Below are positions 17,345 through 33,620 of a DNA stretch of 64,000 nt, piece after piece. Below the pieces are notes generated by a model that was not told the origin of the DNA, did not search any database, and saw only the letters and a list, made by a program, of their open reading frames with translations. The translations under genes and the position numbers were made by a program. The DNA is taken from assembly GCA_035515235.1 (NCBI GenBank), contig DATJBS010000012.1:25336-89335 (forward strand). Reading direction: 5' to 3'. Numbering within the stretch: the stretch's first letter is position 1; each line of letters opens with the position of its first letter. The DNA comes from Chitinophagales bacterium. Its GTDB lineage: Bacteria; Bacteroidota; Bacteroidia; Chitinophagales; JADIYW01.

Positions 17345-17586
17345 CAAATTAAAAATGCCCGTCATTGACGAGCATTCATAAAATCTTAAAAAGGTAAAAA
17401 CTTATTTTCCTAAATTATCGATATCCATTTCTATAATAGGATATCCTAATTTTTTCAATGGTTCAAGGACTGTTGCCTTATCTCCTACTACTATGATATA
17501 CATCTGAGAAGGATGGATATAGGAATTATCGATTTGATCTACATCAATTTTAGTCGGTTTATTTAAAATGCTTAACTGTTGATTGA
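17345..17586. repeat. Left 242-bp direct repeat (displaced copy of the M16 peptidase 3' end plus terminator)
   Basis: Colinear with 33379..33620 at a constant 16,034-bp offset. The first ~39 bp, including the hairpin, are identical. Substitutions are scattered through the coding part. Confidence 0.9.
17351..17376 (-). terminator. Rho-independent terminator (duplicate copy), likely ending the island operon
   Basis: Minus strand reads aatgctcgtcaatgacgggcattttt: a ~9-bp stem with one mismatch followed by a T-run. Identical to the copy at 33385..33410. Confidence 0.65.
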
Positions 17587-17656
17587 TTTCAGATAATCTA
17601 AAACTTTGTTTTTTTTCTTCTTTGCTCGTTAAATATTTTATTGAATTTTCAGACAT
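17402..17656 (-). pseudogene. Remnant of the M16 peptidase C-terminus (84-aa ORF)
   Basis: ...LSILNKPTKIDVDQIDNSYIHPSQMYIIVVGDKATVLEPLKKLGYPIIEMDIDNLGK mirrors the last ~60 aa of the 33436..36294 protein. The N-terminal 25 aa are unrelated. Confidence 0.8.
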
Positions 17657-17666
17657 TTTTTGATAT

Positions 17667-18191
17667 TTATACTTTTTCCGTTTCTAAAATCATATTCAAA
17701 AATGATGTTGGTTGAAGGAAGTAGTTTGGGTTTTCTTCCAGTTTTTCCTTTATCAGAATTAGTCCTCCGTTGGTGTAAGATTCCATTGTTTTAATCAACA
17801 ATTTTACCGCATCATCTTCATCCAATTCTCCTTTTTCAAGTGCTACTAGGTCAATGTCTGTTTTTGCTATAAGTGCAATAAATATATTTTCTTGTAAATT
17901 GGTAAAGTCCTTACGATCCAATCTATTTGACTTACTACCCCAAAATTGAATTGCGTGACTAAAATCAACCTTTTTTGAGTTTTCTGGTATCGGACTAAAT
18001 TCTTTATTAAACAGTCCAAGAAAGAAAGCATAAATATACAACTCGTAGTTATTGGCAAACTGCTTTCCTCTATCTTCTTTAGATTGTTCAGAGCCACCAC
18101 CTTTACGGGTCAATTTATCAAACAAAATTTCTCTAAAAGCTATGTCATATTTTGGGATTTTCTCCTTCCATTTTTCAAATAAATTCTTCAT
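17667..18191 (-). CDS. Hypothetical 174-aa, apparently alpha-helical protein (last gene of the island operon)
   Basis: ORF starts 1 nt after the stop of the SMC-like ATPase gene. No motif recognised. May correspond to a dnd/ssp-associated small protein, but I cannot verify that. Confidence 0.6.
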   Translation of the reverse strand: MKNLFEKWKEKIPKYDIAFREILFDKLTRKGGGSEQSKEDRGKQFANNYELYIYAFFLGLFNKEFSPIPENSKKVDFSHAIQFWGSKSNRLDRKDFTNLQENIFIALIAKTDIDLVALEKGELDEDDAVKLLIKTMESYTNGGLILIKEKLEENPNYFLQPTSFLNMILETEKV

Positions 18192-18192
18192 C

Positions 18193-20343
18193 TTATAATG
18201 TGATTACTTGTGAGTTAATTGTTTTCAAGTTGTTTGCATCAAAAGGTCTTTCTAACTTAACCCAAAACGCCTTGTCTCTTCTAACATTCTCAAATTCTTT
18301 TTTGATAGAAAGCGTTTTTGTTGCTTTGTCTGTGTGCAGAAAATCTTTGATAAGAAGAATTTTTTGATTTTCGGTTTCAAAAATCAGGTTCAAAAATTGA
18401 GCTGTTTTGTTTTCTCCAAACGATGAAGTCGGAGCATCAAAAATCATTGGAAAATTTTCTTCTTTAATTTCTGATGCCAATTCAGAAATTGCAAATAAGA
18501 TTGAAATGTGCATTGAGGTTAATAATGATTGGTTTGGTTTATAGAAAGTCCTGCCATCTTCTTGCAATTCTACTTCTACTATTGTCCGATTTACTTTGTT
18601 TCTTCTAGTAAATACAATTGTTCCTGTGAAAGCATCAATATTGATTGTCTTGAAAAAGTTGTTTGATTTTGTTTGAAGCTTCTCAATAAATTCATCAAAT
18701 TTCTTCTCCTTAGTATCTTTAAAAATAGTTTCAATGTCACGTAAAATGTTTCTTGTCTTTATCAAAAAAGAATTGGCTGAACTCGTGTCAATCTTATCTT
18801 TTTCTTCCTTTTTTGCTTTTAACTCAGATTCAAGACTTTTCAATTTTGTTGTATAGTCCACTTGGTCTTGATTCCGATTTTTAAGGTCTCTTTGCCAAGC
18901 ATTGTAATTTTTTAGTACATCACTTAATTTCTCAGCACCAATACTCGAATTACCCAATATTTTCTCTCTTTCAGACTTCTCTTTTTCTAATTGTTCGTTG
19001 AGTTCTTCAATGTCTTTTTTTCGGTCATCATTAAATTCAAAAAGTTCTTTAATTTTAGTTCTTATTAATCTAAGATTTTTAAGGTTATCTTCGTGACTAA
19101 TACTCAAATTATCAAGTCTGTTTGTATAATCGTATTTGAAAAGAGGCTCATCTTTATCGGTTTCATTTTCTTCTGTAACTTGACTTTCTAAATACGTTTT
19201 TAGTCTTTTCATCATAAATTCGTAAGCCTCTGATCCTTTTTTAGCTTCACGATTGCACACTTTGCAAATTTCATCATTTAGCATTTCTTCCATAATAGCT
19301 TTTGAAGGAATGTTATTAGGAAGCGGAATAGCATTATTTAATAATTCTGCTTTGGCTTTTTTTTCTCCCTCTATAATGCCTTTTTGTTTGTCAAATTCTG
19401 ATTGCAATTCTCTTCGTGTTTTACTGTGTGCTGACACTTTTTCTGCAAACTCCTTATGTAAGGGCTCAAAATTGACTAGAATCCAATTTTCGTCAAATAG
19501 TGAAGTAGTGTAGTTTTCATCTATTCTGCCTGCTAAATATGAAATTCTTTCTTCAATGTCCTTAATTCGCTTGTTAAGCGTTTCTAAAGCATCTGCGTTG
19601 CTAACGTGACTTTCTGCTAATTGTAAATTGCCTTCTATTTTTCTGATTTCTTCTTCCGTGGAATTCAAATGAACAAGATACTTTGCTTTCTCTCTCTCCA
19701 AATAAATAATATCCCCTTCAAGCTTTTTATAAAGTGCTTCATTCTTTTTATCAAGCTTTGAAGAATCTTCTACTGCTTTTTCTGCTTTCTCTCGTAAAAA
19801 AGCTCCCTTTTCAGAATATTTATCGTAATGCTTCGCCTCCGAAAATAGATTTATAAGGTTTGCTAATGCACTATCACTTTCAAAAATATTAAGTTCCGCT
19901 TCACCCTTGAACATTGAATATTTCCGAATCTGAAAAGGGAATATTCTGTCCAAAAGAGCTTGACCATCAACCTGTGTTCTTTCACCCGAACTATTTTCAG
20001 AAATGCCTTCAATCATAAAACTTGAAGTCGAACATTCATTTGCTTTTTCTTTTTTTGCGAGGAAAGATTTTGTGATGATACTTTTCTCTCCATATTGTTC
20101 TACAGTCATTGAAACCCTTACACGAAAACTATCACCAATTTCCGTTTCATTCAGTTTTTTGGCAGACACTAGCATATCTAATTCTCGATTCTCTCCATTG
20201 AAAAGCCAATCTACTGATTCAAAGAATTTTGTTTTTCCTTCTCCATTTTCTCCAAGGATAATGTTTAAACCTTCCGATAATTCAAAAGTGTTGGTATCGT
20301 AATAACAGAGGTAATTGTCGATTTGTATTTTTCTGATTATCAT
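18193..20343 (-). CDS. SMC/DndD/Rad50-like coiled-coil ABC ATPase
   Basis: 716 aa. N-terminal head with Walker A GENGEGKTK, a long K/E-rich heptad middle, and a C-terminal Walker-B-like PMIFDAPTSSFGENK. 4-nt overlap with the upstream 76-aa gene. Confidence 0.75.
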   Translation of the reverse strand: MIIRKIQIDNYLCYYDTNTFELSEGLNIILGENGEGKTKFFESVDWLFNGENRELDMLVSAKKLNETEIGDSFRVRVSMTVEQYGEKSIITKSFLAKKEKANECSTSSFMIEGISENSSGERTQVDGQALLDRIFPFQIRKYSMFKGEAELNIFESDSALANLINLFSEAKHYDKYSEKGAFLREKAEKAVEDSSKLDKKNEALYKKLEGDIIYLEREKAKYLVHLNSTEEEIRKIEGNLQLAESHVSNADALETLNKRIKDIEERISYLAGRIDENYTTSLFDENWILVNFEPLHKEFAEKVSAHSKTRRELQSEFDKQKGIIEGEKKAKAELLNNAIPLPNNIPSKAIMEEMLNDEICKVCNREAKKGSEAYEFMMKRLKTYLESQVTEENETDKDEPLFKYDYTNRLDNLSISHEDNLKNLRLIRTKIKELFEFNDDRKKDIEELNEQLEKEKSEREKILGNSSIGAEKLSDVLKNYNAWQRDLKNRNQDQVDYTTKLKSLESELKAKKEEKDKIDTSSANSFLIKTRNILRDIETIFKDTKEKKFDEFIEKLQTKSNNFFKTINIDAFTGTIVFTRRNKVNRTIVEVELQEDGRTFYKPNQSLLTSMHISILFAISELASEIKEENFPMIFDAPTSSFGENKTAQFLNLIFETENQKILLIKDFLHTDKATKTLSIKKEFENVRRDKAFWVKLERPFDANNLKTINSQVITL

Positions 20344-20570
20344 AAAGCCTCATTTAAAAATTGAGTAACTTGGTTTCGCAATACCGAATCCGTAACTGTT
20401 GAAGTGCCGTCCAATCCTTCTACTATCAAAGCAATTGCTTTAATTATTGGCTTGTCAGAATTAAGAGCTTCTCTAATTGTAGAAGGCAATTCTTCTTTAT
20501 TGAATTCATACTTGTTTTCAAGTAGCTCGTGGGTTAAAAAACTTTTGAGTATATCGTCTTTTCTTGCCAT
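20340..20570 (-). CDS. Hypothetical 76-aa protein
   Basis: Small ORF wedged between the helicase gene (10-nt gap) and the ATPase gene (4-nt overlap). No motif recognised. Confidence 0.5.
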   Translation of the reverse strand: MARKDDILKSFLTHELLENKYEFNKEELPSTIREALNSDKPIIKAIALIVEGLDGTSTVTDSVLRNQVTQFLNEAL

Positions 20571-20580
20571 AAGAATAATT

Positions 20581-22785
20581 TTATAAATCGTTAAGGTTTA
20601 GGTTGTAGTAGTCCAATATGCTTTTCAGCTTTTCGTAAGTGTCGGTCTTGTTCATTGCCAGATTAGCAAAGTCAACCACTCGTTCAAGTTCTTTTTTTAC
20701 TAGCCCTTTTTCCATTTCAAAAGTGCTTTCATCTGAAACTTCCGGCACAACTACTAAATCGTGAATGGTTGCGTGAATTTTATCTTTATGCAATCGCAAA
20801 ACTCTGCCTCTTCTTTGGATAAATTGTCTTGGATTACCAGTACTCGCACAAAATATTGCTAGTTCGGAACGTGGAACATCAACACCTTCATCCAAACATT
20901 TCATTGAAGTTAAAACGTGAATATTACTTTGTTCAAAGTTTCTTAAAATTTCCTCTCGGTTGCTTGAATTTGCAGTAAATTGTTTCACCATTACAGAATC
21001 ATCTGTTTGGCTAACTGCCTTGGTATATTCGTTAATCAACCTATTTTCATCTTCGGTTTCAACACTAAAATCTGTTTCATCAAAATTTGCTTCTATGCCC
21101 TCTGGAACATAAATCAATGTATATTTCAGGTTCTTTCGTTTATCAAATTCACTTCTGAGAATCGCTTTGAAAGCTTCTAATTTATTGGCTGCTTTGTGAA
21201 TAATTCGTTTTCTTTCAAGGAGTTTCTTTTCAATTTCAGGAGTACTTCTAAAATTTCCTGTTTCTTTGTCAAATAAGCCCATTCGCAACAGTTGAAGAGA
21301 AAGTTCCTTGTACTTCTCCATTTCTGGGTCTGTTAGCTTTACTATATGCGGATAGTAAGTGTAATTACAAAGCCATCCAATTTTTAAGGCTTCCTCCATT
21401 GAATAGGAAACAATGTATGGCGGCTCATCATTGAAAAACTCTTGAATGGCTTGATTTCCTACTTCGTCAAATTTTCTATGCGGAGTTGCAGATAATCCAA
21501 TTCGTTTTTCAAGATGGATGTTTGGTAGCAATCTTAAAAGTCCTTGAGAACCCAAATTGTGCGTTTCATCTGAAATTAAAATGGTGTCTTTAGGCAGTTG
21601 AGTAAAGTAACTTTGAAACTTTGGTCTTGGCAAAGAAGCATAAGTAACAATGACGATGTAAGAAGTATCAATCAGTTTTGAGGCAGTATTGAAAAATGCT
21701 AGGTTTTTATCCCAATTTTCTTTTGAACTGACGGTAATGATGTTTTTAAAATTGAAATTAGCACATTCTTTTTTCCATTGTTCAACTAAAGCTGTTGTTG
21801 GAACGGTTATAATGGCTCTGTAAATTCCAGTTTTCTTGTATTCATTTAGCAAACAGTTGAGCGAAGTAATCGTTTTACCAGTGCCAGTTGCCATTGCAAA
21901 CATTCCTTTGTAGTTGTTCGCAACCCAGTTTTCGTAAGCTTTTATCTGATAAGGGCGAGGTTTACCACCTTTGGGAAATCTTGGTGTTCTTCTAATGATT
22001 TCAATTTCACTAAAAAGTTTCGTGATTGTTTTTTTCAGTTTGGGGTTTGAAATCAAACTCTGTTTCTTTTTGAGAAGTTGTTCTTCCTGAACAAGTAATT
22101 CATTGATGTCTTTCTTTCCAAATCTATCTTTGAGAACAACTTCAATGTCACTAACAGGGATATATTCAACATCTTCATCTTTTTCAGCGAAATAGTCATC
22201 AATGAGTTTAAGTTGCTTTTTAATCAGTTTGTTTGACCTGCCATTTTCCCAGCTCAAAAAAGCTTCCAGTTGTTCTATGTTTTCAGAAAGACCATAGTAG
22301 GTAAAGTTGCAAGATGCTTGATAGCCAACAGCATCTTGACCATCACTAAAAACGCCTGATTTGTAATGGGCTATTCCTTTTCCGTTTTTGGGTTTGATAA
22401 CCTTTATTTCAATGCGTTTTTCAGCTATTAAATATGCCAAACATTCAAAAAAGTGTGTATCGTATTCATCAAGTACTCTTCCTAGCGAAACAATATCCGT
22501 TAAATCAAATACTCTTATTTCATTTGGATTATCTTCTACTCGGGAAATTGCTTCTTTATCCTTTGCCGAAAGCAAATGATTGATAACCATTTTCATTTTC
22601 CCGCCTTTACTGATAAAAGTGGCAAAGCCAACAGAAAGCAGATTTATAGCGGAAGAACTGAAATAACCTAACAATAAACTAAATTCATTGCTATTGGCTA
22701 ATCCGTCCAAATAGAATTGCAAGGGTTCGTTTTCTGAACCCGTTTTATAATCTCTATCTATTGACCAATCGCAATCTTTAAGCAT
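20581..22785 (-). CDS. PLD-like nuclease domain fused to an SF2 (Res/DEAH-type) helicase
   Basis: 734 aa. N-terminal HKD-like block GIAHYKSGVFSDG...ASCNFTYYGLSENIE. Helicase motifs: I MATGTGKT, II DETH, III SATP, VI QRRGRVLR. 8-nt overlap with the desulfurase gene. Confidence 0.8.
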   Translation of the reverse strand: MLKDCDWSIDRDYKTGSENEPLQFYLDGLANSNEFSLLLGYFSSSAINLLSVGFATFISKGGKMKMVINHLLSAKDKEAISRVEDNPNEIRVFDLTDIVSLGRVLDEYDTHFFECLAYLIAEKRIEIKVIKPKNGKGIAHYKSGVFSDGQDAVGYQASCNFTYYGLSENIEQLEAFLSWENGRSNKLIKKQLKLIDDYFAEKDEDVEYIPVSDIEVVLKDRFGKKDINELLVQEEQLLKKKQSLISNPKLKKTITKLFSEIEIIRRTPRFPKGGKPRPYQIKAYENWVANNYKGMFAMATGTGKTITSLNCLLNEYKKTGIYRAIITVPTTALVEQWKKECANFNFKNIITVSSKENWDKNLAFFNTASKLIDTSYIVIVTYASLPRPKFQSYFTQLPKDTILISDETHNLGSQGLLRLLPNIHLEKRIGLSATPHRKFDEVGNQAIQEFFNDEPPYIVSYSMEEALKIGWLCNYTYYPHIVKLTDPEMEKYKELSLQLLRMGLFDKETGNFRSTPEIEKKLLERKRIIHKAANKLEAFKAILRSEFDKRKNLKYTLIYVPEGIEANFDETDFSVETEDENRLINEYTKAVSQTDDSVMVKQFTANSSNREEILRNFEQSNIHVLTSMKCLDEGVDVPRSELAIFCASTGNPRQFIQRRGRVLRLHKDKIHATIHDLVVVPEVSDESTFEMEKGLVKKELERVVDFANLAMNKTDTYEKLKSILDYYNLNLNDL

Positions 22786-23926
22786 ATTTAAAATTTGGTT
22801 GTGTTAGTTCTTTGATTTTGCTAATCACTGTTTCTATGTCTTCAATTGAGTTGTATTTTCCTAAGGAAAACCGTAAAGATGCAAACGCATCACCATCACA
22901 TAAACCCATTGCTTTCAAAACGTGTGAGGGTTCAATTACTGCTGAAGAACAAGCAGAACCATTGGAAACTGCAATATTTTTCATTCTGCCAATCAAAACA
23001 TTGGCATCCTGTCCTTTGAAACAAATGTTGGTGGTGTTGAAAATTCTGTTTTCTGAATCACCATTTAGTGAAGTATTTTGCAGTTTTAAAAATTCAGTTT
23101 CGAGTTTGTCTTTTAGTTCAGAAATGTTCCTTTTATTCAAATCCATTTCTTCACTAGCTATTTCACAAGCCTTTGCTAAGGCAATAATTCCAGGTACATT
23201 GAGTGTGCCGCTTCTCAAACCTTGTTCGTGACCGCCTCCGTGAATTTGTGGGGAGAGTTTTGTTTTATTTCTTACATACAAGGCTCCGATTCCTTTTGGG
23301 GCATACATTTTATGACCACTAAAACAAAGTAAATCAATACATAAATCATTAACATCAATTTCAATTTTACCAACTGCTTGAGTGGCATCTGTCATAAACA
23401 AAGCTCCTTTTTCGTGAGCTAGTTTAGCAATTTCTTTGATGGGTTGAATTACTCCAGTTTCGTTATTGATATACATAACGGAAACTAAAACAGTATCAGG
23501 TCGAATGGCTTTTTGAAGTTCTGCTAAATCAATCAATCCATTAGGTTGAACTGTTAAATAAGTAACTTCAAAACCTTTTCTTTCTAAGTCTTTGCAAGTG
23601 TCTAAAACCGCTTTGTGTTCGGTTGAAATGGTGATGATGTGTTTTCCTATATTAGAATAGCTTTCTGCAACACCTTTTATGGCAATATTGATCGCTTCTG
23701 TTGCTCCACTTGTAAAAATCAGTTCATTCGGTTCTGCATAGATAAAATCAGCTATTTGCTCTCGGGCTTGTTTTACTTTTTCATTGATGTTTTGACCAAA
23801 ATGGTGGGAACTGCTTGCATTGGCAAAGTTGTCCTTTAAAAAAGGCAACATAGCTTCAAGCACCCTTGGATCGATGGGGGTGGTGGAATTGTAGTCGAGA
23901 TATGATATGTTTCGAAATTTATTCAT
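22778..23926 (-). CDS. sspA: IscS/NifS-type (group I) cysteine desulfurase, SspA/DndA-like by context
   Basis: 382 aa. PLP-Lys FSGHKMYAPKGIGALY and catalytic loop SNGSACSS...EPSHVL. Embedded in the phosphorothioation-type operon. Confidence 0.7.
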   Translation of the reverse strand: MNKFRNISYLDYNSTTPIDPRVLEAMLPFLKDNFANASSSHHFGQNINEKVKQAREQIADFIYAEPNELIFTSGATEAINIAIKGVAESYSNIGKHIITISTEHKAVLDTCKDLERKGFEVTYLTVQPNGLIDLAELQKAIRPDTVLVSVMYINNETGVIQPIKEIAKLAHEKGALFMTDATQAVGKIEIDVNDLCIDLLCFSGHKMYAPKGIGALYVRNKTKLSPQIHGGGHEQGLRSGTLNVPGIIALAKACEIASEEMDLNKRNISELKDKLETEFLKLQNTSLNGDSENRIFNTTNICFKGQDANVLIGRMKNIAVSNGSACSSAVIEPSHVLKAMGLCDGDAFASLRFSLGKYNSIEDIETVISKIKELTQPNFKYA

Positions 23927-23934
23927 TCAAAAAT

Positions 23935-24675
23935 CTATGCTTTGTGTATGTGAGGATTAAGATTGAAAGGCTCAAATCCTTGTTCAAAAGTTGTATCAGG
24001 TAAACTATTCCAGACTGACGATAATACTAAATAATATGGTTTCCAAAGTCTTTGTTGTGAGTTGAAAACTATTTCTTTATACCTTGAGTCTTCAATAAGT
24101 TTATATACTTTTTCTGATGGAAAATAATTTTGTAAAATAAAATCAATACCCAATATTACATCCATTGGAGGATAAGCAATTCGCGGGGTAGGAAGAATTA
24201 ACGCTGAACCAAAACTGTCTACACCTTTTTGCTCCAACTTATTTCCCCCAAAAGTTAAATGATATTCGGGATGGATATAGGTGTAATTAGGACTTTTAAT
24301 ATTTTTATCTAAATGCCAAGAGGCATAAAAAACATCAATTTTGTCAGGTAAATCACGGTATCCTTCTAATTCAATGTCAAAACTTAAATCCCTTAAAGGG
24401 TTACATACATTATTTAGATCATTTTGAAAAATACCAGCAAGTGAAATATTGAAAACTATGTCAATTAAATTTACTTTTTGAGGTATTGAACCTGCGACAC
24501 AACCTTCAATAGAAAACTTCAAACTACCACATTCATAATTCCATTCTGAAATATTTTGAGAGCATTGTAACTTTGCAGAAGCATCAAACAAGCTTTTGGC
24601 ATCTTGTATAATATTGTTGGAAGTTAGCAATACAGCAAAATCAAAAATATCTATAGCTAGTATTTGACAATTCAT
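23935..24675 (-). CDS. Hypothetical 246-aa protein (third gene of the kinase/REC triad)
   Basis: ORF starts 2 nt after the REC-like gene and ends 8 nt before the desulfurase gene. No recognised family. His/aromatic-rich patch WHLDKNIKSPNYTYIHPEYHLTFGG. Confidence 0.6.
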   Translation of the reverse strand: MNCQILAIDIFDFAVLLTSNNIIQDAKSLFDASAKLQCSQNISEWNYECGSLKFSIEGCVAGSIPQKVNLIDIVFNISLAGIFQNDLNNVCNPLRDLSFDIELEGYRDLPDKIDVFYASWHLDKNIKSPNYTYIHPEYHLTFGGNKLEQKGVDSFGSALILPTPRIAYPPMDVILGIDFILQNYFPSEKVYKLIEDSRYKEIVFNSQQRLWKPYYLVLSSVWNSLPDTTFEQGFEPFNLNPHIHKA

Positions 24676-24677
24676 TT

Positions 24678-25823
24678 TTATGGTCTTACGTTAGGGTATT
24701 GTTTTTGTAATATTTCTAGTTTGTATTCCTCAGACGGAGATAACTTTTTCCACTTATCTTTGCCTTTTGGTTTCAAGGCTTCTTCATAACAAACATATTT
24801 TTTGTCCTGCCACGGGTAATAGTTGTCTTGGCCATCAACTAACAATCCATCAACTGTATCAATAGAAACACCAGAACCAACGCATTTAGTCCAAAAAGCT
24901 TCACTTTTCGCCTTTTCATTTTTCTCTATTGGTACTAATCCGGGTAATTCTAACTTCTCCTTCAAAAGATCTACTTTCTGACTTGCAGTTGTAGCTCTTA
25001 AACTATTTTTTAATTCTAACTCCGTTCTCCACCAATGTTCAATTCCACTCATCCACCATCTCTCCCATCCTTCACTAAAAACACCACGATATTGGTATTT
25101 CTTTAAATTCTCTAAAACATTTTTCCAATCACTTGATTTAAAAATATCAATGCCAAGTCGAGTTGCTAGTATTTCTTCGGTAATTAAAATTCCCGAAACT
25201 GGGATATTTGATTTGTCAAGAAGATTTTTGATAATAAAGTTCGAAACTGTATGTGTAGGATATCCTATAACTGCTCTCATTTCACTTATAAAACGATTAT
25301 TCTCTAATTCCAAATTATATTTATATAATTCAATAAGGTTGTTATCATCATTTTTACATTTTGAAATTAGCTCATAACCGATTGAAAGACTTATCAGTTT
25401 CTGTCTCAACGGAGCAAATAGAATTGGGTCGTTAAGCCATTCTCTTGGAACTATTAGGTCAAATAAATCTTCATTTGTTCGATCAAAATACTTTTCAAGG
25501 TTCACAGTGGCAGACAATAAAACAATTGGAATTTCTTTTAATCTCCCTGCTTTTGATAAATTTCTATACTCTTGTGCCAATGAAGATCCTTTATAATGAG
25601 ATGTTTCCTTATCTTTATTTGGCATTTCTTCAAGATTTAAATCAAGAATCAACCCTTCGTAACTTTTAAATTCATCTGATAATATTCTTTCACGTTCTTT
25701 CTCCCAATCTCCTTTAGGATTATCAAAATCAATTGAAAGCACTCCTTCTTTTTGAAGGCCTGTAATAATACCCTTTGCATTGAGCTCACTATTATCGTCT
25801 ATATATAAATATTTACAAGTCAT
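24678..25823 (-). CDS. REC-like (receiver) domain protein with unknown Trp-rich C-terminal domain
   Basis: 381 aa. The N-terminal ~125 aa fit a receiver layout: YLYIDDN (acidic pair D9/D10), GLILDLNLEEMP (D61 at the phospho-acceptor position), IPIVLLSA (S104). The C-terminal ~250 aa are unassigned (GWERWWMSGIEHWW). 11-nt overlap with the kinase-like gene. Confidence 0.6.
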   Translation of the reverse strand: MTCKYLYIDDNSELNAKGIITGLQKEGVLSIDFDNPKGDWEKERERILSDEFKSYEGLILDLNLEEMPNKDKETSHYKGSSLAQEYRNLSKAGRLKEIPIVLLSATVNLEKYFDRTNEDLFDLIVPREWLNDPILFAPLRQKLISLSIGYELISKCKNDDNNLIELYKYNLELENNRFISEMRAVIGYPTHTVSNFIIKNLLDKSNIPVSGILITEEILATRLGIDIFKSSDWKNVLENLKKYQYRGVFSEGWERWWMSGIEHWWRTELELKNSLRATTASQKVDLLKEKLELPGLVPIEKNEKAKSEAFWTKCVGSGVSIDTVDGLLVDGQDNYYPWQDKKYVCYEEALKPKGKDKWKKLSPSEEYKLEILQKQYPNVRP

Positions 25824-27990
25824 ATTGTTCTAATTCTTCTTTTTGCGCTTTAGGAAGTTCAATTCTAAAGCAAGTGTTATAACCATTTTCTGGGATAATA
25901 ATTTTTATAATACCTCCGTAATCTTCGATAATGTCTTTAATAATCTTCAAACCTAAACCAGTTCCTGTTAATTTTTCATCTGAGGGTGAATCAAATCCAG
26001 CAGGAGTTGATGTTGTGAAAAAAGCATTAAAGACCCGATTTTTATTTTCTTCAGGAATACCGTCTCCGTTATCGTGAATTTCTAAATATATTCTGTTGTT
26101 ATCTTCACCAGTTATTATTCTAATTTTTCCTGAATTTCCCGAACGTTTTATTGCTTTTTTTGAATTAGTATATAGGTTATACAAAATCGAACTCCACTCG
26201 GAAATATGCATTAGAGTGGTATAAAGATTGTAACCATAGGAGTCTAAAAGCAGTTCTGTATTTTGCCTTTCAAGGTCATCTTTAATATTTTTAATGAAAC
26301 GTTCAACAACATCAGTTATTAAAACAGGTTTAATTTCTCTGCTTGTGTTTTCAGATACTGTTGCATTAAAGTAAGACGTATAAGATGTGAAATTCGCAAA
26401 CGTCATTTTTAAATTATCAAGAAGTTCTATTGTTTTTAAATCATTTTCACTTGATTCATAAAGTTTAGCTATATAACCATTTATAGATGGTGTAAATTGA
26501 ATTATTTCGTGAGTAAACTCTCCAATAGTCAATCCTAATGAAGCTAGAATTCTAAGCATACTGAGCTCTTCAATGACCTCATAGTACTTTTCTTTTATAC
26601 TTTTAATGGCTTCCTTAGCAGTCTCATTTAAATCTTCTTTATCAACCTCTTCAAATTCCTCTTCAATTGTTTTTTTCTCTGGAATATCCTCTAAATTATC
26701 GTCCACATCCACCGGAGTTTGCTCTCCTTTTTTAAGTAAAGAAATTTTCTCAGATATTCTTCCCTTTGCTGCCTCAAATGCTTTCTGAAGAAAATCAGTA
26801 AGCTCGTAGAAGGCGTCATTTTCGATCAATCCCTCCCTACTTGCAGTCTCTTGAAACATTTCACCTTCTTTATCGATAATTTCGACAAAGCCAAATAAAT
26901 TTCTATTGCTTAGAGGAATATTTCCTTGACCAGATTGAAATGTATATCTTTTATCAAAATATAGCCAATCATTTTTTGGTTCCCCATAAGGCAGAACTCT
27001 AAAGCCGTTTCTGTAAAGTCTTATACCACTGCTTTCTTGAGAAAGTTTATAAATATTTTTTAACTCAAGTTGTGAAATATTAAGATAATATTCCTGTCGA
27101 TTATATATAAAATAGTAAGCTTTAAAGTGAATGTTTTTTAATTTATCAAATCTGCTAGAATTATCTGATTTATGAATCTGTATAGCATAATCGTCTAAAT
27201 TTAATTTTTCACTTTTAACCCCAAAAAATCCGTCTCCCAATGCATCTACAAAGCCTTCAATAACTGCTACATTCTTATTAAATAACATTTTCTCAGGACT
27301 TGCTATTTCATAAGTTACACCATCAATTATATTAGAAAACTTTACTTTGAAGGACTCATCATTCTGTTTTGCAAGGTTTAATGATTGACTACTTTCAGAA
27401 AGATAATCAGGTTGAAACAGATCCGAAACATATCTGTAAATTCTTTTTATTGAAGCTTCAGTCCAACCTTCTCTTAGGTCTTTAATGATTAAAGTTGTAC
27501 CTTCTAGCTTTTCCTTTGGTATATAGTCAATTTGGTTATTGATTGCAGAAATATCCTGATCGACTGTATAATTATTCCAGTCAATAGTAAGTTTTATTGC
27601 TTGTTCCGATTCTAGCGTTTGAGTTATAATAATTAATTTCTTTCCAAGTCTTTGTGTGGCAAATCTTCCAATTCCTTTTTTTCCCGCTCGACTTCGTTTA
27701 TATCGAGAAGATAATGGATTATGCACTTTATCTGTTGATGAGATAGTCATAAATCCCAACCTGAGTTGTTCTAATGTCATTCCAAGTCCATCATCAATTA
27801 TCTCTAACGTTCCACCACTCCATAAAGAATCCATAAAATTTACCTCAACATTTTTTGCATCCGCATCATATGCATTTTTGACTAATTCTGAAACCGCTGT
27901 TTCTGCCCTACCGACTAGCTCTTTTCCTAATCTATCAATCAAACCTGCATCTACCGAAAATGCAATACTATTTGGTGATTTTTCTTCCAT
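25813..27990 (-). CDS. Soluble double-GHKL protein: N-terminal MORC/Hsp90-like ATPase plus C-terminal histidine-kinase core
   Basis: First GHKL: ELVKNAYDADA, IIDDGLGM, GKKGIGRF. A putative H-box GEFTHEIIQF sits after an acidic coiled linker. Second GHKL: NLYTNSKKAI, IHDNGDGI, FNAFFTT, GTGLGLKI. No TM segments. ATG at 27990 (MEEKSPNS) is preferred. The track start at 28041 would overlap the upstream gene by 41 nt. Confidence 0.7.
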   Translation of the reverse strand: MEEKSPNSIAFSVDAGLIDRLGKELVGRAETAVSELVKNAYDADAKNVEVNFMDSLWSGGTLEIIDDGLGMTLEQLRLGFMTISSTDKVHNPLSSRYKRSRAGKKGIGRFATQRLGKKLIIITQTLESEQAIKLTIDWNNYTVDQDISAINNQIDYIPKEKLEGTTLIIKDLREGWTEASIKRIYRYVSDLFQPDYLSESSQSLNLAKQNDESFKVKFSNIIDGVTYEIASPEKMLFNKNVAVIEGFVDALGDGFFGVKSEKLNLDDYAIQIHKSDNSSRFDKLKNIHFKAYYFIYNRQEYYLNISQLELKNIYKLSQESSGIRLYRNGFRVLPYGEPKNDWLYFDKRYTFQSGQGNIPLSNRNLFGFVEIIDKEGEMFQETASREGLIENDAFYELTDFLQKAFEAAKGRISEKISLLKKGEQTPVDVDDNLEDIPEKKTIEEEFEEVDKEDLNETAKEAIKSIKEKYYEVIEELSMLRILASLGLTIGEFTHEIIQFTPSINGYIAKLYESSENDLKTIELLDNLKMTFANFTSYTSYFNATVSENTSREIKPVLITDVVERFIKNIKDDLERQNTELLLDSYGYNLYTTLMHISEWSSILYNLYTNSKKAIKRSGNSGKIRIITGEDNNRIYLEIHDNGDGIPEENKNRVFNAFFTTSTPAGFDSPSDEKLTGTGLGLKIIKDIIEDYGGIIKIIIPENGYNTCFRIELPKAQKEELEQYDL

Positions 27991-28000
27991 ATTAGTAGTT

Positions 28001-29104
28001 TTATATAAAACAAGACGCACAACCTTCACCCTCTGCATCATCTAAGATGTCCACTAGGTAAGGTGATTTTGCTTTTGATTTTCTTTCCATTCTTTTAATG
28101 TACTCTTCCTTTATGGCAGCTATTCTTGTGGGCTGAATTAATTCTTCCAAACTTTCAAATTGACCCCAAGTGTAGCCGTCTTTCTCGTATTCCATTGCTT
28201 TTTTATACAACTCAGGGTGTTGTTCGTATAACCAAACCCATTCAATTTTTTGCTGGAAAAAGCAAAAGAAACAGCCAGAACGACTTCTTGCGTATTCTCC
28301 TTTTTTTCCGTTAATCTCAAATTCAATTTTGTTGTAGTAGGCAGGAACCCCCACACCGCTTTCTTCGAGTATTCTGAAAATATCTTCTCGAACCAATACT
28401 TCATCATTATCTAATAATGGGAAGGAAGCTTCAGTTGCTAAAGGATAATCAGTCGTTTTCAAAAAGTCAAAAACCAAATGATTAAATGCTTTCACATTGG
28501 CATCTAATAAAATATTGAGCTTTTGGTCTATTGTGAAACTTGAATCCACTTTTCGAGAAATAGTTTGAAACGCTTTTTCTTGATTTTTGCCAAAGTCTAT
28601 ATTCTTGGACATTGTTAAAAGTTGCTCCATATTTTGGTTGGCTAGCAATTTTGTGACAACATCTTGACTCCAAATATTCTTACGAAATGGGAATATGGAT
28701 TGAATATTTTTTTTGGTTGAAATATAGCCTTCTCTTTCTTCATCACCTCTGATACCTACATAAGAAACTACTGGATCAGTGCCGACATACTTTTCAAAAG
28801 GATCAAGTTTCAGTTTCTTAGTACACCAGCGTGCATTAGGTGAAGGTAAAAAACCTCCAAGCATTTTCACAAAGTGATCGAATGGGTCTTCCGAACTGTT
28901 TTCAGCACCTTTTAACAATTGTATCTTTATTCCAAGATGTGTTTGTAAATTTTCAATTAATTGATAGGTTTCGTCAAGTTCCTTACCTGTATCGCAGGTA
29001 TAGAATTCTAAATCAATAGACGGATATTTCGTTTTGACATAAATAGCCAAAGCAGCACTGTCTTTCCCTCCTGATATACCTAATACGTGTCTTACTTTGC
29101 TCAT
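28001..29104 (-). CDS. sspD: PP-loop ATP pyrophosphatase / PAPS-reductase family protein, SspD-like
   Basis: 367 aa. PP-loop GISGGKDSAALAIY and Cys pairs SGCFFCFF and GCASCFI. ATGA overlap with the upstream ATPase gene. Confidence 0.7.
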   Translation of the reverse strand: MSKVRHVLGISGGKDSAALAIYVKTKYPSIDLEFYTCDTGKELDETYQLIENLQTHLGIKIQLLKGAENSSEDPFDHFVKMLGGFLPSPNARWCTKKLKLDPFEKYVGTDPVVSYVGIRGDEEREGYISTKKNIQSIFPFRKNIWSQDVVTKLLANQNMEQLLTMSKNIDFGKNQEKAFQTISRKVDSSFTIDQKLNILLDANVKAFNHLVFDFLKTTDYPLATEASFPLLDNDEVLVREDIFRILEESGVGVPAYYNKIEFEINGKKGEYARSRSGCFFCFFQQKIEWVWLYEQHPELYKKAMEYEKDGYTWGQFESLEELIQPTRIAAIKEEYIKRMERKSKAKSPYLVDILDDAEGEGCASCFI

Positions 29105-32100
29105 TGTAATAATTCTTTAAGTAGGTTCAAGACAGCCGCAATATTTGAAGTATTGTCTTTGCCCAGTTTGTTTTTCAATTCGTTCTTCAATTCCTCAATC
29201 TCTTTGCTTTTGTTTTTTGGAACCCTTACCACTTTCGGGTCAATTTTGCTAAAGAACGAATCAATTTTAACTCCTATCACTTCTTCTTTGCTTTCGTCAA
29301 TATCCGACTTTGAGATTTTCGTCAAACTATCCAATTCCAAAATCATTGCTTTAAATTTTTCGTAAAGCAAAATTTCATCTTCGTCTGTAAAGGCTTCCAA
29401 TGTTTTACCTGTTACTGCTTGTGCTATAGAGTTCAGCCAAGCTTTTCGGTCGTCTAAAGGCGAATCCAATCTTTGTACAAATGTCTTTTGATTACTCAAA
29501 AGCATATGCTTTTTCAATTTTGTGAATCGCTTTTGTAAATACGCTTTGTATTCTTCAAAGTCGGAAGTTTGCCCAACAAATTCACTACAAATGAAATCCT
29601 CAAAACGCTTTACCAATTCATCATAAGCAGTTCGTAGTTCTCTTACGGAATCTTGTAAACTGGTTGTAAAGCTTTGAAGTTTAGATTTATCTTGTTGTAA
29701 AGTGGAAAGCGTTAAACCCAAAGCAGTTGGGAAAGCATCAAAAAATGTTTCTTCGGGGTCTTTACTTGTTGCAATAGCTTTTCTAATCTTGATAGCTGAT
29801 GGTGAAAGCCTTTTTGTGTTCTTACTGTATTCTGGTAACTGTTTGTAGAAAACAATAAATGGTTTTATAGTTTCAATAAAAGAGTTGTTATCGAATTTTT
29901 GTTCGGTTGCAATGTTTAAGAATGTTCGATAACTATTGAAAATATCAAGCTTTACACCTTCAATATCAAATGTTTTTATAGAATACTTTTCAGGATATTT
30001 GGCTATTAATTCCAAGTTCTCTTCTGACAAGTTAGGGATGTAACTTTCGTCATTGAAAATGGCGAAATCATCTCGTTTCAAAAACAAGAATGTAGGAACC
30101 CAAAAGTCAATCAACCCTTGTTTTAGTTTGAAAGGTCTTTTGCTCAGTAATTCACTTAATTCTGAGATTTTGAGTTGTTCAGATTTGGCACTTTCTAAAA
30201 AGTCTTCTGAAGCACTCCAAAGTTTGTAGAATGTAGAAGTTCTATCTATAGAAATTACATCTGTTGCATTTTCTCTAATTGGCGAAATGCCGCTTTCTTT
30301 TAAAAGGGATAAATAAATGGTTTTTTCGGGCGGAAATTTAGAATCATCAAAGCCTATATTTTCCTGGTCCCAATGGTTAGCTAAGGCTGAAAAATATCGT
30401 TTCTTAGCTGTATGAATAGATGAAGAAATCTTATGTTTATTTACTAATTCGTTTTTAAAAACAGGGGTAGCATCATACACAATATTACAAACTTGAGAAA
30501 GTAGTTTATTGAAGTCCTTTTTATCAGCAATTTTCTTTTCCTCTCCATTAAAGTACCACTTTACATTTTCATTTTCAGTGAAAAGTCCTTTATTTGAAAT
30601 ATGATGATTAAGAATATTTTTTTGTGAATTCACAATGCTTTCTAACTCTCTTTTTGCTACTTTATCATCTTTGTTTTCTTCCAAAACTTTTTCAGATTTT
30701 TCAATCTCAAAAAGTAGATTTTTTATCTCATCTGTGTTTTTGAAGTAACAGTATATTACAGCTTCTTCTTGTTGCTTTGATTTGTTTTTAATGTCATTTT
30801 CTTTCAACTTACTATTAAAAACAAGATTTACAATCCCATCAATTTCACCTGTTGGGAAATAATTATCAGGATAATCCGAAATTCGAAATTCGAAATATCT
30901 TGGTGTACCTGTAGAGAAAGAATATTGTTTAGCAAAAACTGGATTGAATTGAATATGTTTATTCAGAAGTGTAGTAATATCAACCACTTCCGAAATTTTA
31001 TTGCCCGCTTCAATCAATGCGGTTTGAATGTCTAAATCTGTACCTTCAAATAGAATGAATCGTTTTGAATGGGTACGGTAGCGGATAATATTCTTTGTTT
31101 CAAGATTCTTAATGACTTCTTTGGCATCCGATACACCACAGGCAGTTTTTAAATAATCAATAAAGAAATTCAGATCCAAGATTGAACCACTTGCAGAGAA
31201 AATATTCAAAAGTCCAATCGTTTTTACTGCTTTGATATAATCATTGATATTTGAATCAAATGCTCTTTCCACTTCTTCAATAGATGAACGAATGGAACTC
31301 CAAGCAGAAAAATCGGGATTGTATTTTGATGTTAAAAACGAATAGAAATTAAAATTTAGGTAATCGTAAACATTTGACAGATTGTAGAACGGATTTTCCT
31401 TTTTGTTGAATTTTGCCAATCCTGTATGATCTGACGATTCAAGAAATGAAAACAATGAACGTTCATTTTGACCGTATCTCTGCAATGAAAGTGTGAGTAT
31501 ATTTGCTGAAAGAATATCAAGTGGATATAGCTTTGAAGCAATTTCTTTTAAGTAATCTTTATTAAAGTTAAATGCCTTTGTTTCGGTAGTTAGCTTTAAG
31601 CATTTATCAATTTCTGATTTTGAAGTTTTGGATTCAAAATGCTCAGCAACATATTCCGAAGCTAAAAATAAAAGTTGTTCAACAGGCTCGTTAAAAGTAA
31701 TTTCACGGAAGCGACCTTTTACTTTTGTCCATTCTTGTTGTTGGTTTTTGCTTAGTGAATAAGCATAAGATTCCAAACTTTGGTGAACTGTGGTAATTAA
31801 AACAATATTGTGCTTTGGATTATTACAAAATTCTGCAAGTTGCTGAACAAAGTATAATTCTTTTTCAGGATTGTGTTTACTCGCATACTCTAAAAATTTA
31901 CCAAACTCATCTATGAGAATAAATAAAACCTTGTTTTCTTTTCCAATGGAATGGTAGCGGTTAAATATTTCTGAAAGAATATTTTCTTGTAGATTCTTCA
32001 CCGAATGCACTTCAAAGGTATCTGCAAATTGTTCTACAATTGAAGCGTAAGAACCAATTAATTTTACAAAATCAAACTTTGGCTTATCAAGGAAATTAGG

Positions 32101-32322
32101 TTCAAAGTAACGTTTCGTTCCTATAATACTCTGCTCAAATGCCAAAAGAAAAGAAGATTTACCTGTTCCATAAGTACCAACTACATTAAAAGAACGTATC
32201 CCTTTTTTAAAGTCGTTAACTATTTGGCTAACAACTTGACTCGCATTGGGAGTTGGGATGTAGTTGAAATCCCTATCAGTGTCCCTTATAATATTTACCG
32301 ATGTTGTGAAATTATTTGCCAT
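29101..32322 (-). CDS. sspC: Large P-loop NTPase, SspC-like by position
   Basis: 1073 aa. Walker A GTYGTGKSS and Walker B LFILIDEFGK. Sits between the DUF4007-like and PP-loop genes with 11-nt and 4-nt overlaps. Confidence 0.6.
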   Translation of the reverse strand: MANNFTTSVNIIRDTDRDFNYIPTPNASQVVSQIVNDFKKGIRSFNVVGTYGTGKSSFLLAFEQSIIGTKRYFEPNFLDKPKFDFVKLIGSYASIVEQFADTFEVHSVKNLQENILSEIFNRYHSIGKENKVLFILIDEFGKFLEYASKHNPEKELYFVQQLAEFCNNPKHNIVLITTVHQSLESYAYSLSKNQQQEWTKVKGRFREITFNEPVEQLLFLASEYVAEHFESKTSKSEIDKCLKLTTETKAFNFNKDYLKEIASKLYPLDILSANILTLSLQRYGQNERSLFSFLESSDHTGLAKFNKKENPFYNLSNVYDYLNFNFYSFLTSKYNPDFSAWSSIRSSIEEVERAFDSNINDYIKAVKTIGLLNIFSASGSILDLNFFIDYLKTACGVSDAKEVIKNLETKNIIRYRTHSKRFILFEGTDLDIQTALIEAGNKISEVVDITTLLNKHIQFNPVFAKQYSFSTGTPRYFEFRISDYPDNYFPTGEIDGIVNLVFNSKLKENDIKNKSKQQEEAVIYCYFKNTDEIKNLLFEIEKSEKVLEENKDDKVAKRELESIVNSQKNILNHHISNKGLFTENENVKWYFNGEEKKIADKKDFNKLLSQVCNIVYDATPVFKNELVNKHKISSSIHTAKKRYFSALANHWDQENIGFDDSKFPPEKTIYLSLLKESGISPIRENATDVISIDRTSTFYKLWSASEDFLESAKSEQLKISELSELLSKRPFKLKQGLIDFWVPTFLFLKRDDFAIFNDESYIPNLSEENLELIAKYPEKYSIKTFDIEGVKLDIFNSYRTFLNIATEQKFDNNSFIETIKPFIVFYKQLPEYSKNTKRLSPSAIKIRKAIATSKDPEETFFDAFPTALGLTLSTLQQDKSKLQSFTTSLQDSVRELRTAYDELVKRFEDFICSEFVGQTSDFEEYKAYLQKRFTKLKKHMLLSNQKTFVQRLDSPLDDRKAWLNSIAQAVTGKTLEAFTDEDEILLYEKFKAMILELDSLTKISKSDIDESKEEVIGVKIDSFFSKIDPKVVRVPKNKSKEIEELKNELKNKLGKDNTSNIAAVLNLLKELLQ

Positions 32323-33196
32323 AATATGTATCTAAAATTGTGAAAGCATCTGATTTTTTCTTGAATTGCAACTCTTTAATCCCTGCTTGGTCAGTAAAAG
32401 TGATATCTTTAAACTCACTAACTATTTCAGAAATTTTATTCATCAAACCTGAGCGATTTAAAGCGAAAATTGAACCCGGACTATTCAAGTCAAACTCCAA
32501 GGAATTCAGGCTTATAGAATTTCCGTAGTTTGAATTATCAAGTATTGTGAATAATACAACCGCTTCTGGGAGATTATCTCTTTCAGTATTTTCAATGTAA
32601 AATTGTTCTTCTTTGCCTTTCCCTGTTGTTTTTAAAAGCTCAATTTCAGACAGAATTCCCGAGAAACTATCTTCAACATTTTTACTTTCGTTGTCGTTTT
32701 TATACAGATTGGTAAAAACGATAAAATCTTTACCTACGGTATTTTCATTAAAGTTTAAATCGGAACTGTTGTCGCCTATTCGCTTGACGTAGTTCACAAA
32801 AGTTTCTTTGTTAAAAAACAATTTCTCTTTTCTAAATTCATTTAAAATAATGGAATAGATGGAGGCAAATCCGCTTTTTACCAACTGATAATGTAAAAGC
32901 CAAAGGCTTGCTTCATCTTCCAAAAAAGGGTCGTATCCATTTTCATCATCAAATAATCGTTTGCCAAATTCAGTTGGATTGTCTTTATTGTCAATAATAT
33001 TGAAAGCTTTCAGCCAAAAACGAATGGATGAAACCATATTCTTACCAACGCCAAGTTGTACAACGGCATCTTCGTCATTAAAATTCTTGCCTTCTTGAAC
33101 ATAATCGTACCCCTTTTTCAGCCAAAGTTGTCGGCACTGAAAGGAGTCGTGTCCAGAGAAAGTATATTTTATTATTTCAGTATTTTCCAATATCAT
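32312..33196 (-). CDS. sspB: DUF4007-like protein (SspB nickase family), first gene of the operon
   Basis: 294 aa. FSGHDSFQCRQLWLKKGYDYV and LGVGKNMVSSIRFWLKAF resemble the conserved N-terminal blocks I associate with DUF4007. Recognised from memory, not from a search. Confidence 0.6.
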   Translation of the reverse strand: MILENTEIIKYTFSGHDSFQCRQLWLKKGYDYVQEGKNFNDEDAVVQLGVGKNMVSSIRFWLKAFNIIDNKDNPTEFGKRLFDDENGYDPFLEDEASLWLLHYQLVKSGFASIYSIILNEFRKEKLFFNKETFVNYVKRIGDNSSDLNFNENTVGKDFIVFTNLYKNDNESKNVEDSFSGILSEIELLKTTGKGKEEQFYIENTERDNLPEAVVLFTILDNSNYGNSISLNSLEFDLNSPGSIFALNRSGLMNKISEIVSEFKDITFTDQAGIKELQFKKKSDAFTILDTYYGK

Positions 33197-33378: not shown

Positions 33379-33620
33379 CAAATTAAAAATGCCCGTCATT
33401 GACGAGCATTCATAAAAACTTGAAGGATAAAAAATCTATTTTTCTAAATTATCGATATCCATTTCTATTACGGGATATCCTAATTTTTTCAAAGGCTCAT
33501 GAACTGTTGCTTTATCTCCGACCACTATAATGTACATCTGAGAAGGATGGATATAAGTCTTCGTAATTTGATCTACATCACTTTTAGTCAGTTTATTTAA
33601 AATGCTTAACTGTTGATTGA
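33379..33620. repeat. Right 242-bp direct repeat (functional 3' end plus terminator of the M16 peptidase gene)
   Basis: Partner of 17345..17586. Confidence 0.9.
33385..33410 (-). terminator. Rho-independent terminator of the M16 peptidase gene
   Basis: Minus strand aatgctcgtcaatgacgggcattttt, 26 nt downstream of the stop codon. Confidence 0.65.

Follow-up and report, generated by a model that had tools for sequence, protein, structure and literature searches.

SspE, a restriction module of Ssp-type DNA phosphorothioate (PT) systems, is a DUF262 GTPase joined to an HNH/DUF1524 nuclease, and the Detocs (DtcABC) system is built from a TPR-type sensor kinase, a REC-only buffer and a REC-PNP effector, with no known DNA-modification partner. 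In the other Ssp restriction module, SspFGH, a Walker A motif occurs in SspF and the C-terminus of SspH resembles FtsK; SspE and SspFGH act additively on one sspBCD, and ~84% of the sspBCD clusters in the same 2021 survey have no known restriction partner (PMC8092258). GHKL/paraMORC ATPases are established companions of restriction-modification (R-M) nucleases and are thought to gate the nuclease (PMC2292703; GHKL-Shedu VcSduA/paraMORC3, PMC12137116). The closest described pair comes from a purely computational study, in which a soluble kinase of HATPase_c_3-DHp-HATPase_c architecture and a response regulator (RR)-like protein lie beside DNA methylases (Bellieny-Rabelo, Pretorius & Moleleki 2021, Genome Biol Evol; PMC8011034); these are mostly upstream C5-methylases, R-M domains are enriched, descent from paraMORCs was proposed, and neither PT nor a third gene is part of the account. 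Here we describe a set of three genes, hereafter the triad, that lies within an ssp operon of a Chitinophagales bacterium (assembly GCA_035515235.1, contig DATJBS010000012.1, positions 25,336 to 89,335); the whole 64,000-nucleotide stretch that was analysed is called the window, and coordinates refer to it unless another record is named. The triad encodes a GHKL-histidine kinase (G1), a receiver-domain protein (G2) and a third protein of 246 aa (G3). Judged from sequence comparison, it represents a PT-linked form, with three genes and not described before, of the known paraMORC-kinase/RR-like R-M pair, and a candidate for a third type of Ssp restriction partner.

All genes of the cluster are on the minus strand, and the coordinates, junctions, motifs and domain calls of the triad were verified on the sequence; its three genes are real and have many conserved homologues. 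G1 (25813-27990, 725 aa) is a soluble protein in which a paraMORC-type GHKL ATPase is fused to a histidine-kinase core, G2 (24678-25823, 381 aa) carries a Trp-rich, family-specific domain behind its receiver, and G3 (23935-24675, 246 aa) is a candidate catalytic subunit with an invariant polar cluster. The recomputed junctions are a 10-nt gap from sspD to G1, an 11-nt overlap of G1 and G2, a 2-nt gap from G2 to G3 and an 8-nt gap from G3 to sspA.

A sequence-only reading of the locus, made before any database search, had described G1 as an N-terminal MORC/Hsp90-type GHKL domain followed by a full kinase core, and Pfam matches and alignment to histidine kinases in the PDB agree with it. The N-terminal GHKL ATP-binding domain (aa 30-150, 27541-27903, minus strand) matches HATPase_c_3 (2.1e-22) with motifs I-III intact (E35/N39/D42, D66-G68-G70 and G103-K105-G106-G108), and the start of the protein also scores against the N-terminal model of the BbrUII/HgiDII restriction-enzyme family (NCBIfam 1.8e-24) and against PADLOC REase_II (5.8e-16). 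The DHp and CA kinase core (aa 470-725, 25816-26583, minus strand) matches PDB histidine kinases by phmmer (1e-15) and includes a HATPase_c domain (aa 601-715, 2.9e-26). Residues 488-718 align to Thermotoga maritima HK853 (PDB 4jas/3dge, E ~1e-15), such that His494 of the H-box motif 'GEFTHEI' occupies the position of the phospho-acceptor His in the HK853 'SHELRTP' sequence, with an acidic residue, Glu495, next to it. The DHp histidine, whose absence the sequence-only reading had named as fatal to its proposal, is thus present, and the codon at 26509-26511 (minus strand, within 'FTHEI') is predicted to specify the phospho-acceptor. Across 89 full-length G1 homologues, conservation is at least 97% for His494-Glu495, for the N, G1, F and G2 boxes of the CA domain (N605/N609, D640/G642/G644, F654/F657 and G676/G678/G680, respectively), for the GHKL motifs, and for the 'YRNGFRVLPYGE' and 'ETASREG' motifs of a middle region (aa 326-387), which we take to be reminiscent of the 'NGR' S5-type transducer motif of MutL/MORC proteins. 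No profile match covers aa 190-470 of G1, the protein lacks any hydrophobic segment of the kind that forms membrane helices, and none of G1, G2 and G3 contains a Walker A motif (G....GK[ST]). The G1 frame is also open to an upstream ATG at 28041, which would yield a 742-aa protein overlapping sspD by 41 nt; G1 has this length in the closest homologue among the matches listed (97% identical) and on a contig (L132) that bears an identical G2, and most homologues, including the one called in Flavobacterium azooxidireducens, have 725-726 aa.

The receiver in G2, previously assigned by eye from D9/D10, D61 and S104, is borne out both by its predicted fold and by conservation. The AlphaFold2 model of G2 (pLDDT 92) adopts a (beta-alpha)5 CheY-like receiver fold over its N-terminal ~130 residues (aa 1-130, 25434-25823, minus strand; Asp61 codon 25641-25643), and the top Foldseek matches of the model in the PDB are all receivers (RcpA, GacS-D1, CheY and RR468, target TM ~0.6-0.72); a missing receiver fold had been named in advance as a reason to abandon the proposal. 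The active-site quintet is conserved among homologues at D/E9 (95/96), D10 (95/96), D61 (96/96), S/T104 (96/96) and K/R127 (95/96), the window protein carrying Arg at the last position. G2 itself matches no Pfam, NCBIfam or PADLOC model; Pfam Response_reg (PF00072) gives no match at its gathering score in the window protein and weak ones in 1/26 and 3/42 homologues, and iREC is weakly matched by 5/26 and 3/42. The family comprises 926 clusters at 50% identity. Its C-terminal domain (aa 131-381, 24681-25433, minus strand) has 9 Trp in 251 residues and conserves R222, G224, Y245, G247, W256/257, W311, C314, D322 and W338, and its 'ITEEILATRLGID' stretch looks helix-turn-helix (HTH)-like. This domain has no family match and its profile finds nothing in the PDB; the Foldseek search with the whole model is dominated by receiver matches and is thus not informative on the C-terminal domain alone.

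G3 had been reported as a protein with no placeable motif, and the same outcome now holds across family, sequence and fold libraries, as no match was found in Pfam, NCBIfam, PADLOC, PDB sequences (including by profile), PDB folds or BFVD folds. It is nevertheless confidently modelled by AlphaFold2 (pLDDT 90), and H121, D123, H139, R165 and D172 are invariant in 109 sequences, with H135 present in 108 of the 109. This polar cluster, together with an HNH endonuclease found at the same gene position in the distant variants described below, makes G3 the likely catalytic subunit, with a putative nuclease role. Membership in DUF2290 (PF10053), the helicase partner in the Rst Helicase+DUF2290 anti-phage system, was considered and rejected, as 0 of 47 homologues match it in Pfam (E<=1) or PADLOC; the sole DUF2290 label, on UniProt A0A0A2MZP1 for the F. 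subsaxonicum homologue P0178 (L027 ~11181-11891), was not reproduced.

The gene neighbourhood of the triad was surveyed in 47 genome loci, 80 metagenome loci and 1 plasmid locus; the metagenome loci were retrieved with a G3 alignment, and the 80 most similar of 222 matches were kept. The three genes proved to be linked both to each other and to ssp genes, as the sequence-only reading had supposed when it named the absence of such linkage as grounds for rejection: G1 is upstream of G2 in 90/90 loci where the contig permits, G3 is downstream of G2 in 112/112, and G2 is upstream of G3 in 107/108. The gene directly upstream of G1 could be assessed in 84 loci and is SspD in 66, the DndE-like end of a Pbe module (described below) in 6, with SspD before Pbe in the four that have enough sequence, a methyltransferase in 3, and none of the query genes in 9, mostly loci with a methyltransferase downstream. 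Directly downstream of G3, the 100 assessable loci have PbeA (34), a methyltransferase (11), SspA (7; 1 on the same strand and 6 on the opposite one), a convergent Pbe module (7), SspD on the opposite strand (1) or unrelated genes (40). Loci with neither Ssp nor a methyltransferase are contigs that are too short, mostly cut upstream of or within G1. The conserved unit in Bacteroidota is sspB-sspC-sspD-G1-G2-G3, and dozens of lineages have it, among them Tannerella forsythia, Hoylesella loescheii, Alistipes, Prevotella and metagenome-assembled genomes of gut Bacteroidales. The position of sspA varies, being downstream on the same strand only in near relatives of the window and elsewhere on the opposite strand, upstream or absent, so the earlier view of the triad as sandwiched inside the modification genes does not hold as a conserved feature. 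In 18 Ssp-plus-triad loci that have no Pbe module by tblastn (two have a divergent PbeA-like helicase), what lies downstream is mixed, with genes for a relaxase, a type IV secretion system (T4SS), transposases and DRT among others; neither SspE nor SspFGH recurs there. Because only 3 loci are on viral contigs, the triad is not a phage-borne module.

Ssp genes are not the only partners of the triad. At 15 loci, found in Pseudodesulfovibrio, Duganella, a Hymenobacter plasmid and 12 metagenome contigs, the same triad and an M.Eco57I-like N6-adenine methyltransferase (Pfam N6_Mtase, Eco57I, M_Eco57I_C or TaqI_C) make up compact four-gene operons with overlapping genes; the methyltransferase lies either downstream (G1-G2-G3-MTase) or upstream (MTase-G1-G2-G3), and no other gene is conserved around these loci. 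Neighbour-joining of G1 splits the sequences in two, with the 12 methyltransferase-linked ones in one clade and the Ssp-linked ones in another. Both clades retain the phosphorelay residues and the polar cluster of G3, and the alignments indicate that the phosphorelay residues are under purifying selection in each. The proposal that the relay reads PT status therefore fails in its specific form: the triad cannot simply 'read PT', because in a sister clade, itself monophyletic, its partner is an N6-adenine methyltransferase. On the Hymenobacter sp. PAMC 26628 plasmid (NZ_CP014303.1, four-gene operon at ~70.8-77.4 kb; L048 1-5647), the methyltransferase-linked triad lies next to a Piwi-domain (prokaryotic Argonaute, pAgo) gene and a large DNA methyltransferase, a context that is a defence island.

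This exchange of partners bears on two other explanations. The triad could be a Detocs-like abortive-infection phosphorelay that answers a phage cue and not the modification state of DNA, the modification genes protecting host DNA from its effector or merely travelling with it; such a system would have a precedent for kinase-to-receiver immunity in Detocs and would suit the loci that lie near DRT, toxin-antitoxin, pAgo, relaxase and T4SS genes. A modification module, however, adjoins the triad almost universally and within one operon, stop codons overlapping start codons, which chance co-location would not produce, and the triad co-diverges with its type of partner; PADLOC, which covers Detocs if that system is in the release, matches G1-G3 only via the restriction-enzyme N-terminus. 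We consider the chance of this explanation to be slim. The triad could also be a modification-side helper without a restriction role, governing site selection or timing for SspBCD or the methyltransferase, as its position here directly after sspD and before sspA might suggest, SspC- and MORC-type ATPases both acting on DNA. The same helper would then have to serve two chemically unrelated modification enzymes, yet a stand-alone M.Eco57I-like methyltransferase needs none, and in the SspABCD systems characterised so far PT is made with no gene of this kind (PMC8092258); a helper role is accordingly very improbable indeed.

More distant relatives of the kinase and receiver were found by tblastn of G1 against plasmids, which returned 67 records. 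On Bacteroides finegoldii and Bacillus plasmids, the gene order is GHKL-kinase, a ~210-aa REC-like protein, an HNH endonuclease and an N6-methylase (B. finegoldii NZ_OY725905.1, L129 5992-11094; Bacillus sp. AR4-2 plasmid, L130 5992-11366), and the ~210-aa protein aligns, weakly, in register with the G2 receiver by hhalign. This variant looks like an R-M system that is run via a kinase and a receiver, and because the HNH endonuclease is third in order, a nuclease stands in the place of G3. When G2 was aligned by hhalign to the RR-like proteins of distant pairs, only the receiver part aligned. Campylobacter jejuni accounts for 24 of the 67 records; the one of these that was examined, conjugative plasmid CP132133.1 (L138 4974-9439), encodes a GHKL-kinase and a 340-aa response regulator with a convergent dcm cytosine methylase. 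On Ensifer adhaerens plasmid pC (L131 5734-13956), the genes for a GHKL-kinase and a 680-aa protein face, in convergent orientation, a PAPS-reductase-family gene and one for a large ATPase; this locus may represent a second independent tie of this kinase class to sulfur-type DNA modification, in Alphaproteobacteria. Taken together, these comparisons indicate a broad class of paraMORC-kinase and receiver modules that are wired to DNA-modification genes and have variable outputs.

The best supported of the readings considered, and in our judgement about as likely as not, is that the triad is the effector half, restriction-type and gated by a phosphorelay, of a modification-based self/non-self defence whose partner in this locus is SspBCD with SspA. 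Several lines of evidence argue for this reading. The triad switches between two unrelated modification chemistries, the four-gene methyltransferase operons hold no other restriction candidate, and beside sspBCD the triad fills the slot of SspE or SspFGH. The N-terminus of G1 matches BbrUII/HgiDII restriction enzymes, GHKL ATPases accompany R-M nucleases, and an HNH endonuclease stands third in the distant variants. All catalytic residues appear to be under purifying selection, six polar residues of G3 are invariant or nearly so, and the 11-gene cluster that contains the triad is a discrete island that recurs in F. azooxidireducens with other flanks. The following scheme is our inference, from each biochemical step to the question of whether unmodified or modified DNA is what is sensed and to the action of G3 as a nuclease. 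In it, SspBCD and SspA would act as the modification partner and make single-strand phosphorothioate marks. G1 would dimerise via its DHp helices, and its N-terminal paraMORC-type GHKL domain would engage DNA in an ATP-dependent manner, with the modification state of the DNA, or an infection cue, setting the kinase/phosphatase balance of the kinase core. Autophosphorylation on His494 and phosphoryl transfer to Asp61 of G2 would follow, and phospho-G2 would use its C-terminal domain to bind DNA and/or G3 and so activate G3 against unmarked DNA. A PbeABCD-like module encoded in the same operon would be a second, independent reader of the same marks. In a stronger form, which we advance tentatively and place somewhat short of an even chance, the triad would be the first restriction-type module in which the self/non-self decision is made by a His-Asp phosphorelay, indifferent to the chemistry of the mark and licensing a G3 nuclease, and would be the missing partner of many 'orphan' sspBCD clusters in Bacteroidota.

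The HTH-like sequence 'LAARLGID' in the C-terminal domain of G2, a domain with no catalytic-looking residue set, fits an ordinary DNA-binding response regulator equally well. The triad might thus be a regulatory two-component system, in which G1 would sense a cellular or DNA-state signal and phospho-G2 would be a DNA-binding regulator that tunes transcription or activity of the modification genes and of the Pbe genes in the manner of C-proteins, DndB or BrxR, and G3 would be an accessory. A regulatory role in R-M was favoured for the related pair in the 2021 study (PMC8011034), and the window already encodes a PbeABCD-like restriction module. However, the four-gene methyltransferase operons offer such a regulator no other restriction gene to control, G3 shows linkage as strict as that of G1 and G2 and has an invariant His/Asp/Arg cluster, and HNH takes the place of G3 in the distant variants; moreover, few transcription factors depend on a MORC-type ATPase as sensor, and the triad always lies inside the operon and is not divergent from it. 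We find the regulatory explanation, although it is the main rival, rather unlikely. Other points besides the HTH-like stretch weigh against the effector reading. The support for the role of the triad is all computational, no nuclease fold or motif is assignable to G3 or to the C-terminal domain of G2, and with the PbeABCD-like module a recognisable restriction module already exists in this locus, where immunity can be explained without the triad. The census is biased as well, as the motifs of the family itself served as bait, the metagenome loci are the best 80 of 222 and several contigs are near-duplicates; the genomic contexts cover only a minority of the 926 G2-family clusters.

The triad is embedded in a co-directional cluster of 11 genes that spans 15.5 kb with junctions of -11 to +10 nt, in the order sspB, sspC, sspD, G1, G2, G3, sspA and then the PbeABCD-like module. 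The flanking genes are Ssp members by Pfam and PADLOC, SspB, SspC, SspD and a cysteine desulfurase all being adjacent. The sspB-like gene (32312-33196, 294 aa) matches DUF4007 (4.2e-77) and PADLOC SspB (2.3e-123); the sspC-like ATPase (29101-32322, 1073 aa) matches PADLOC SspC (E=0) and has a Walker A motif, GTYGTGKS, at aa 49; the sspD-like PAPS-reductase-family protein (28001-29104, 367 aa) matches PAPS_reduct (3.8e-08) and PADLOC SspD (2.4e-91); and the sspA/dndA-like cysteine desulfurase (22778-23926, 382 aa) matches Aminotran_5 (3.7e-90) and PADLOC SspA (1.7e-168). The sequence-only reading described the sspD- and sspA-like flanks correctly and missed the complete PbeABCD-like module (17667-22785) that directly follows sspA in the same operon and whose PbeD part is weakly supported. 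The PbeA-like protein (20581-22785, 734 aa) has an N-terminal PLD/HKD-like region and an SF2 helicase, matches PADLOC PbeA (E=0) and TIGR04095, 'DNA phosphorothioation system restriction enzyme' (4.9e-120), and matches a Phospholipase-D anti-phage model at aa 23-172. It is followed by a PbeB-like open reading frame (ORF) of 76 aa (20340-20570) between PbeA and the ABC ATPase, whose role is inferred from PMC10853773; a gene of the same size is also called in F. azooxidireducens. The PbeC-like coiled-coil ABC ATPase (18193-20343, 716 aa) matches PADLOC PbeC (5.5e-16) and AAA_23 and carries a CKVC motif in its coiled coil ('EICKVCNRE'), and the last gene, weakly assigned as PbeD/DndE-like (17667-18191, 174 aa), matches TIGR04062 dnd_assoc_4 below cutoff (E=0.001) and is kept behind the ABC ATPase in many loci. 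We take the reading of the Pbe parts, a CxC-ABC-ATPase-DndE system (Xiong 2019, re-annotated by Rakesh, Aravind & Krishnan 2024), from PMC10853773. Besides the triad, this module is another candidate effector acting on the same PT marks. Many loci have the triad and no Pbe module, and the two never occur together in the methyltransferase clade. The pairing of Ssp modification with a Pbe-type module, in place of Dnd, may itself be undescribed.

The whole ~16-kb ssp/triad/pbe island is bracketed by a 242-nt direct repeat, detected by a repeat search, with 87% identity between its copies. The upstream copy (33379-33620) holds the 3' end of an intact M16-peptidase gene, which ends at 33436, and a terminator-like hairpin (33411-33387); the downstream copy (17345-17586) carries a duplicated 3' fragment of this gene (ORF 17402-17656) with an identical hairpin (17377-17353). 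Because it is bounded in this way, we regard the cluster as a discrete inserted island, and the insertion looks to have taken place at the 3' end of the M16-peptidase gene. There is no integrase inside the island. The same 11 genes are found in the same order, with different flanks, in F. azooxidireducens (CP096205.1). Scans of the window for tRNA genes and Rfam families found one tRNA-Arg, distant from the island, and a promoter scan was uninformative (78 sites versus 65 expected).

If the effector reading is true, a kinase-receiver relay in an R-M-like system would be a new principle of restriction control, allowing licensing, proofreading or delay, and the widespread paraMORC-kinase pairs would gain a defined function. 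The triad fills the vacant partner slot of sspBCD in dozens of Bacteroidota lineages, among them human oral and gut species, and its use with two chemically unrelated marks is a natural experiment on modification-state sensing. G3 and the C-terminal domain of G2, both confidently folded in the models, are candidates for new enzymatic or DNA-reading activities.

Profile and PADLOC evidence agrees with the earlier judgement that the triad is none of the named systems SspE, SspFGH or Detocs. No DUF262 or DUF1524/HNH match to Pfam or PADLOC was found in G1-G3, which sets aside SspE; SspFGH was rejected because the triad has no Walker A motif, FtsK/SpoIIIE-like domain or PADLOC match, and Detocs because G1-G3 have no TPR or PNP domain and no PADLOC match to it. 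The sequence-only reading had also stated that no Ssp system is described with a phosphorelay, and we likewise found no paper that joins sspBCD and 'histidine kinase'; the triad is not described in two Dnd/BREX surveys from the Aravind/Krishnan group or in a survey of PT in the gut microbiome. Its claim to novelty stands for the PT link and the third gene, neither of which PMC8011034 mentions, and does not stand in full, as the kinase/RR-like R-M pair is in that study. The locus agrees with that pair in architecture and context, having a soluble kinase, an adjacent RR-like gene and a neighbouring DNA-modification gene. Formal membership in the corresponding Pfam families was rejected: HEF_HK (PF19191) has no match in the window G1 and none is recorded in its 120 nearest homologues, a Duganella homologue scoring 16.8 bits (E=0.0094) where the cutoff is 24.1, and Response_reg_2 (PF19192) has no match in G2 or 68 scanned homologues. 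Both models are narrow, since in the Pfam copy used even published-type pairs from C. jejuni and Enterobacter fall outside them; no relationship was detected between the C-terminal domain of G2 and the RR-like proteins from these two.

The comparison with known systems can be set out as follows. With Detocs, the triad shares the histidine kinase-to-receiver logic that Detocs uses for immunity. With the MORC/paraMORC ATPases of R-M systems, G1 shares an N-terminal GHKL domain, intact ATP motifs and an encoding alongside methylases and nucleases; it differs in that its ATPase is fused to a full histidine-kinase core and not to a nuclease, and output would therefore pass via a separate receiver protein. 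PbeABCD is, like the triad, a PT-associated restriction candidate, and it shares the operon here and follows the triad in 34 of 100 assessable loci, whereas it is a separate module made up of an HKD-helicase, a small protein, an ABC ATPase and a DndE-like protein. SspE and SspFGH have no sequence or domain relationship to the triad, but like it they are encoded beside sspBCD, and more than one such module can share one sspBCD, as the triad and Pbe may. The HEF_HK/Response_reg_2 pair is the most similar: it has in common with the triad a soluble kinase architecture, a DHp His-Glu, a C-terminal HATPase_c, an RR-like partner with a conserved receiver active site and an unassigned C-terminus, and DNA-modification neighbours. 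The two differ in that the published pair is found mostly with C5-methylases, whereas the triad is partnered by SspBCD-type PT modification, as in the window, or by an N6-methylase, and includes a conserved third gene.

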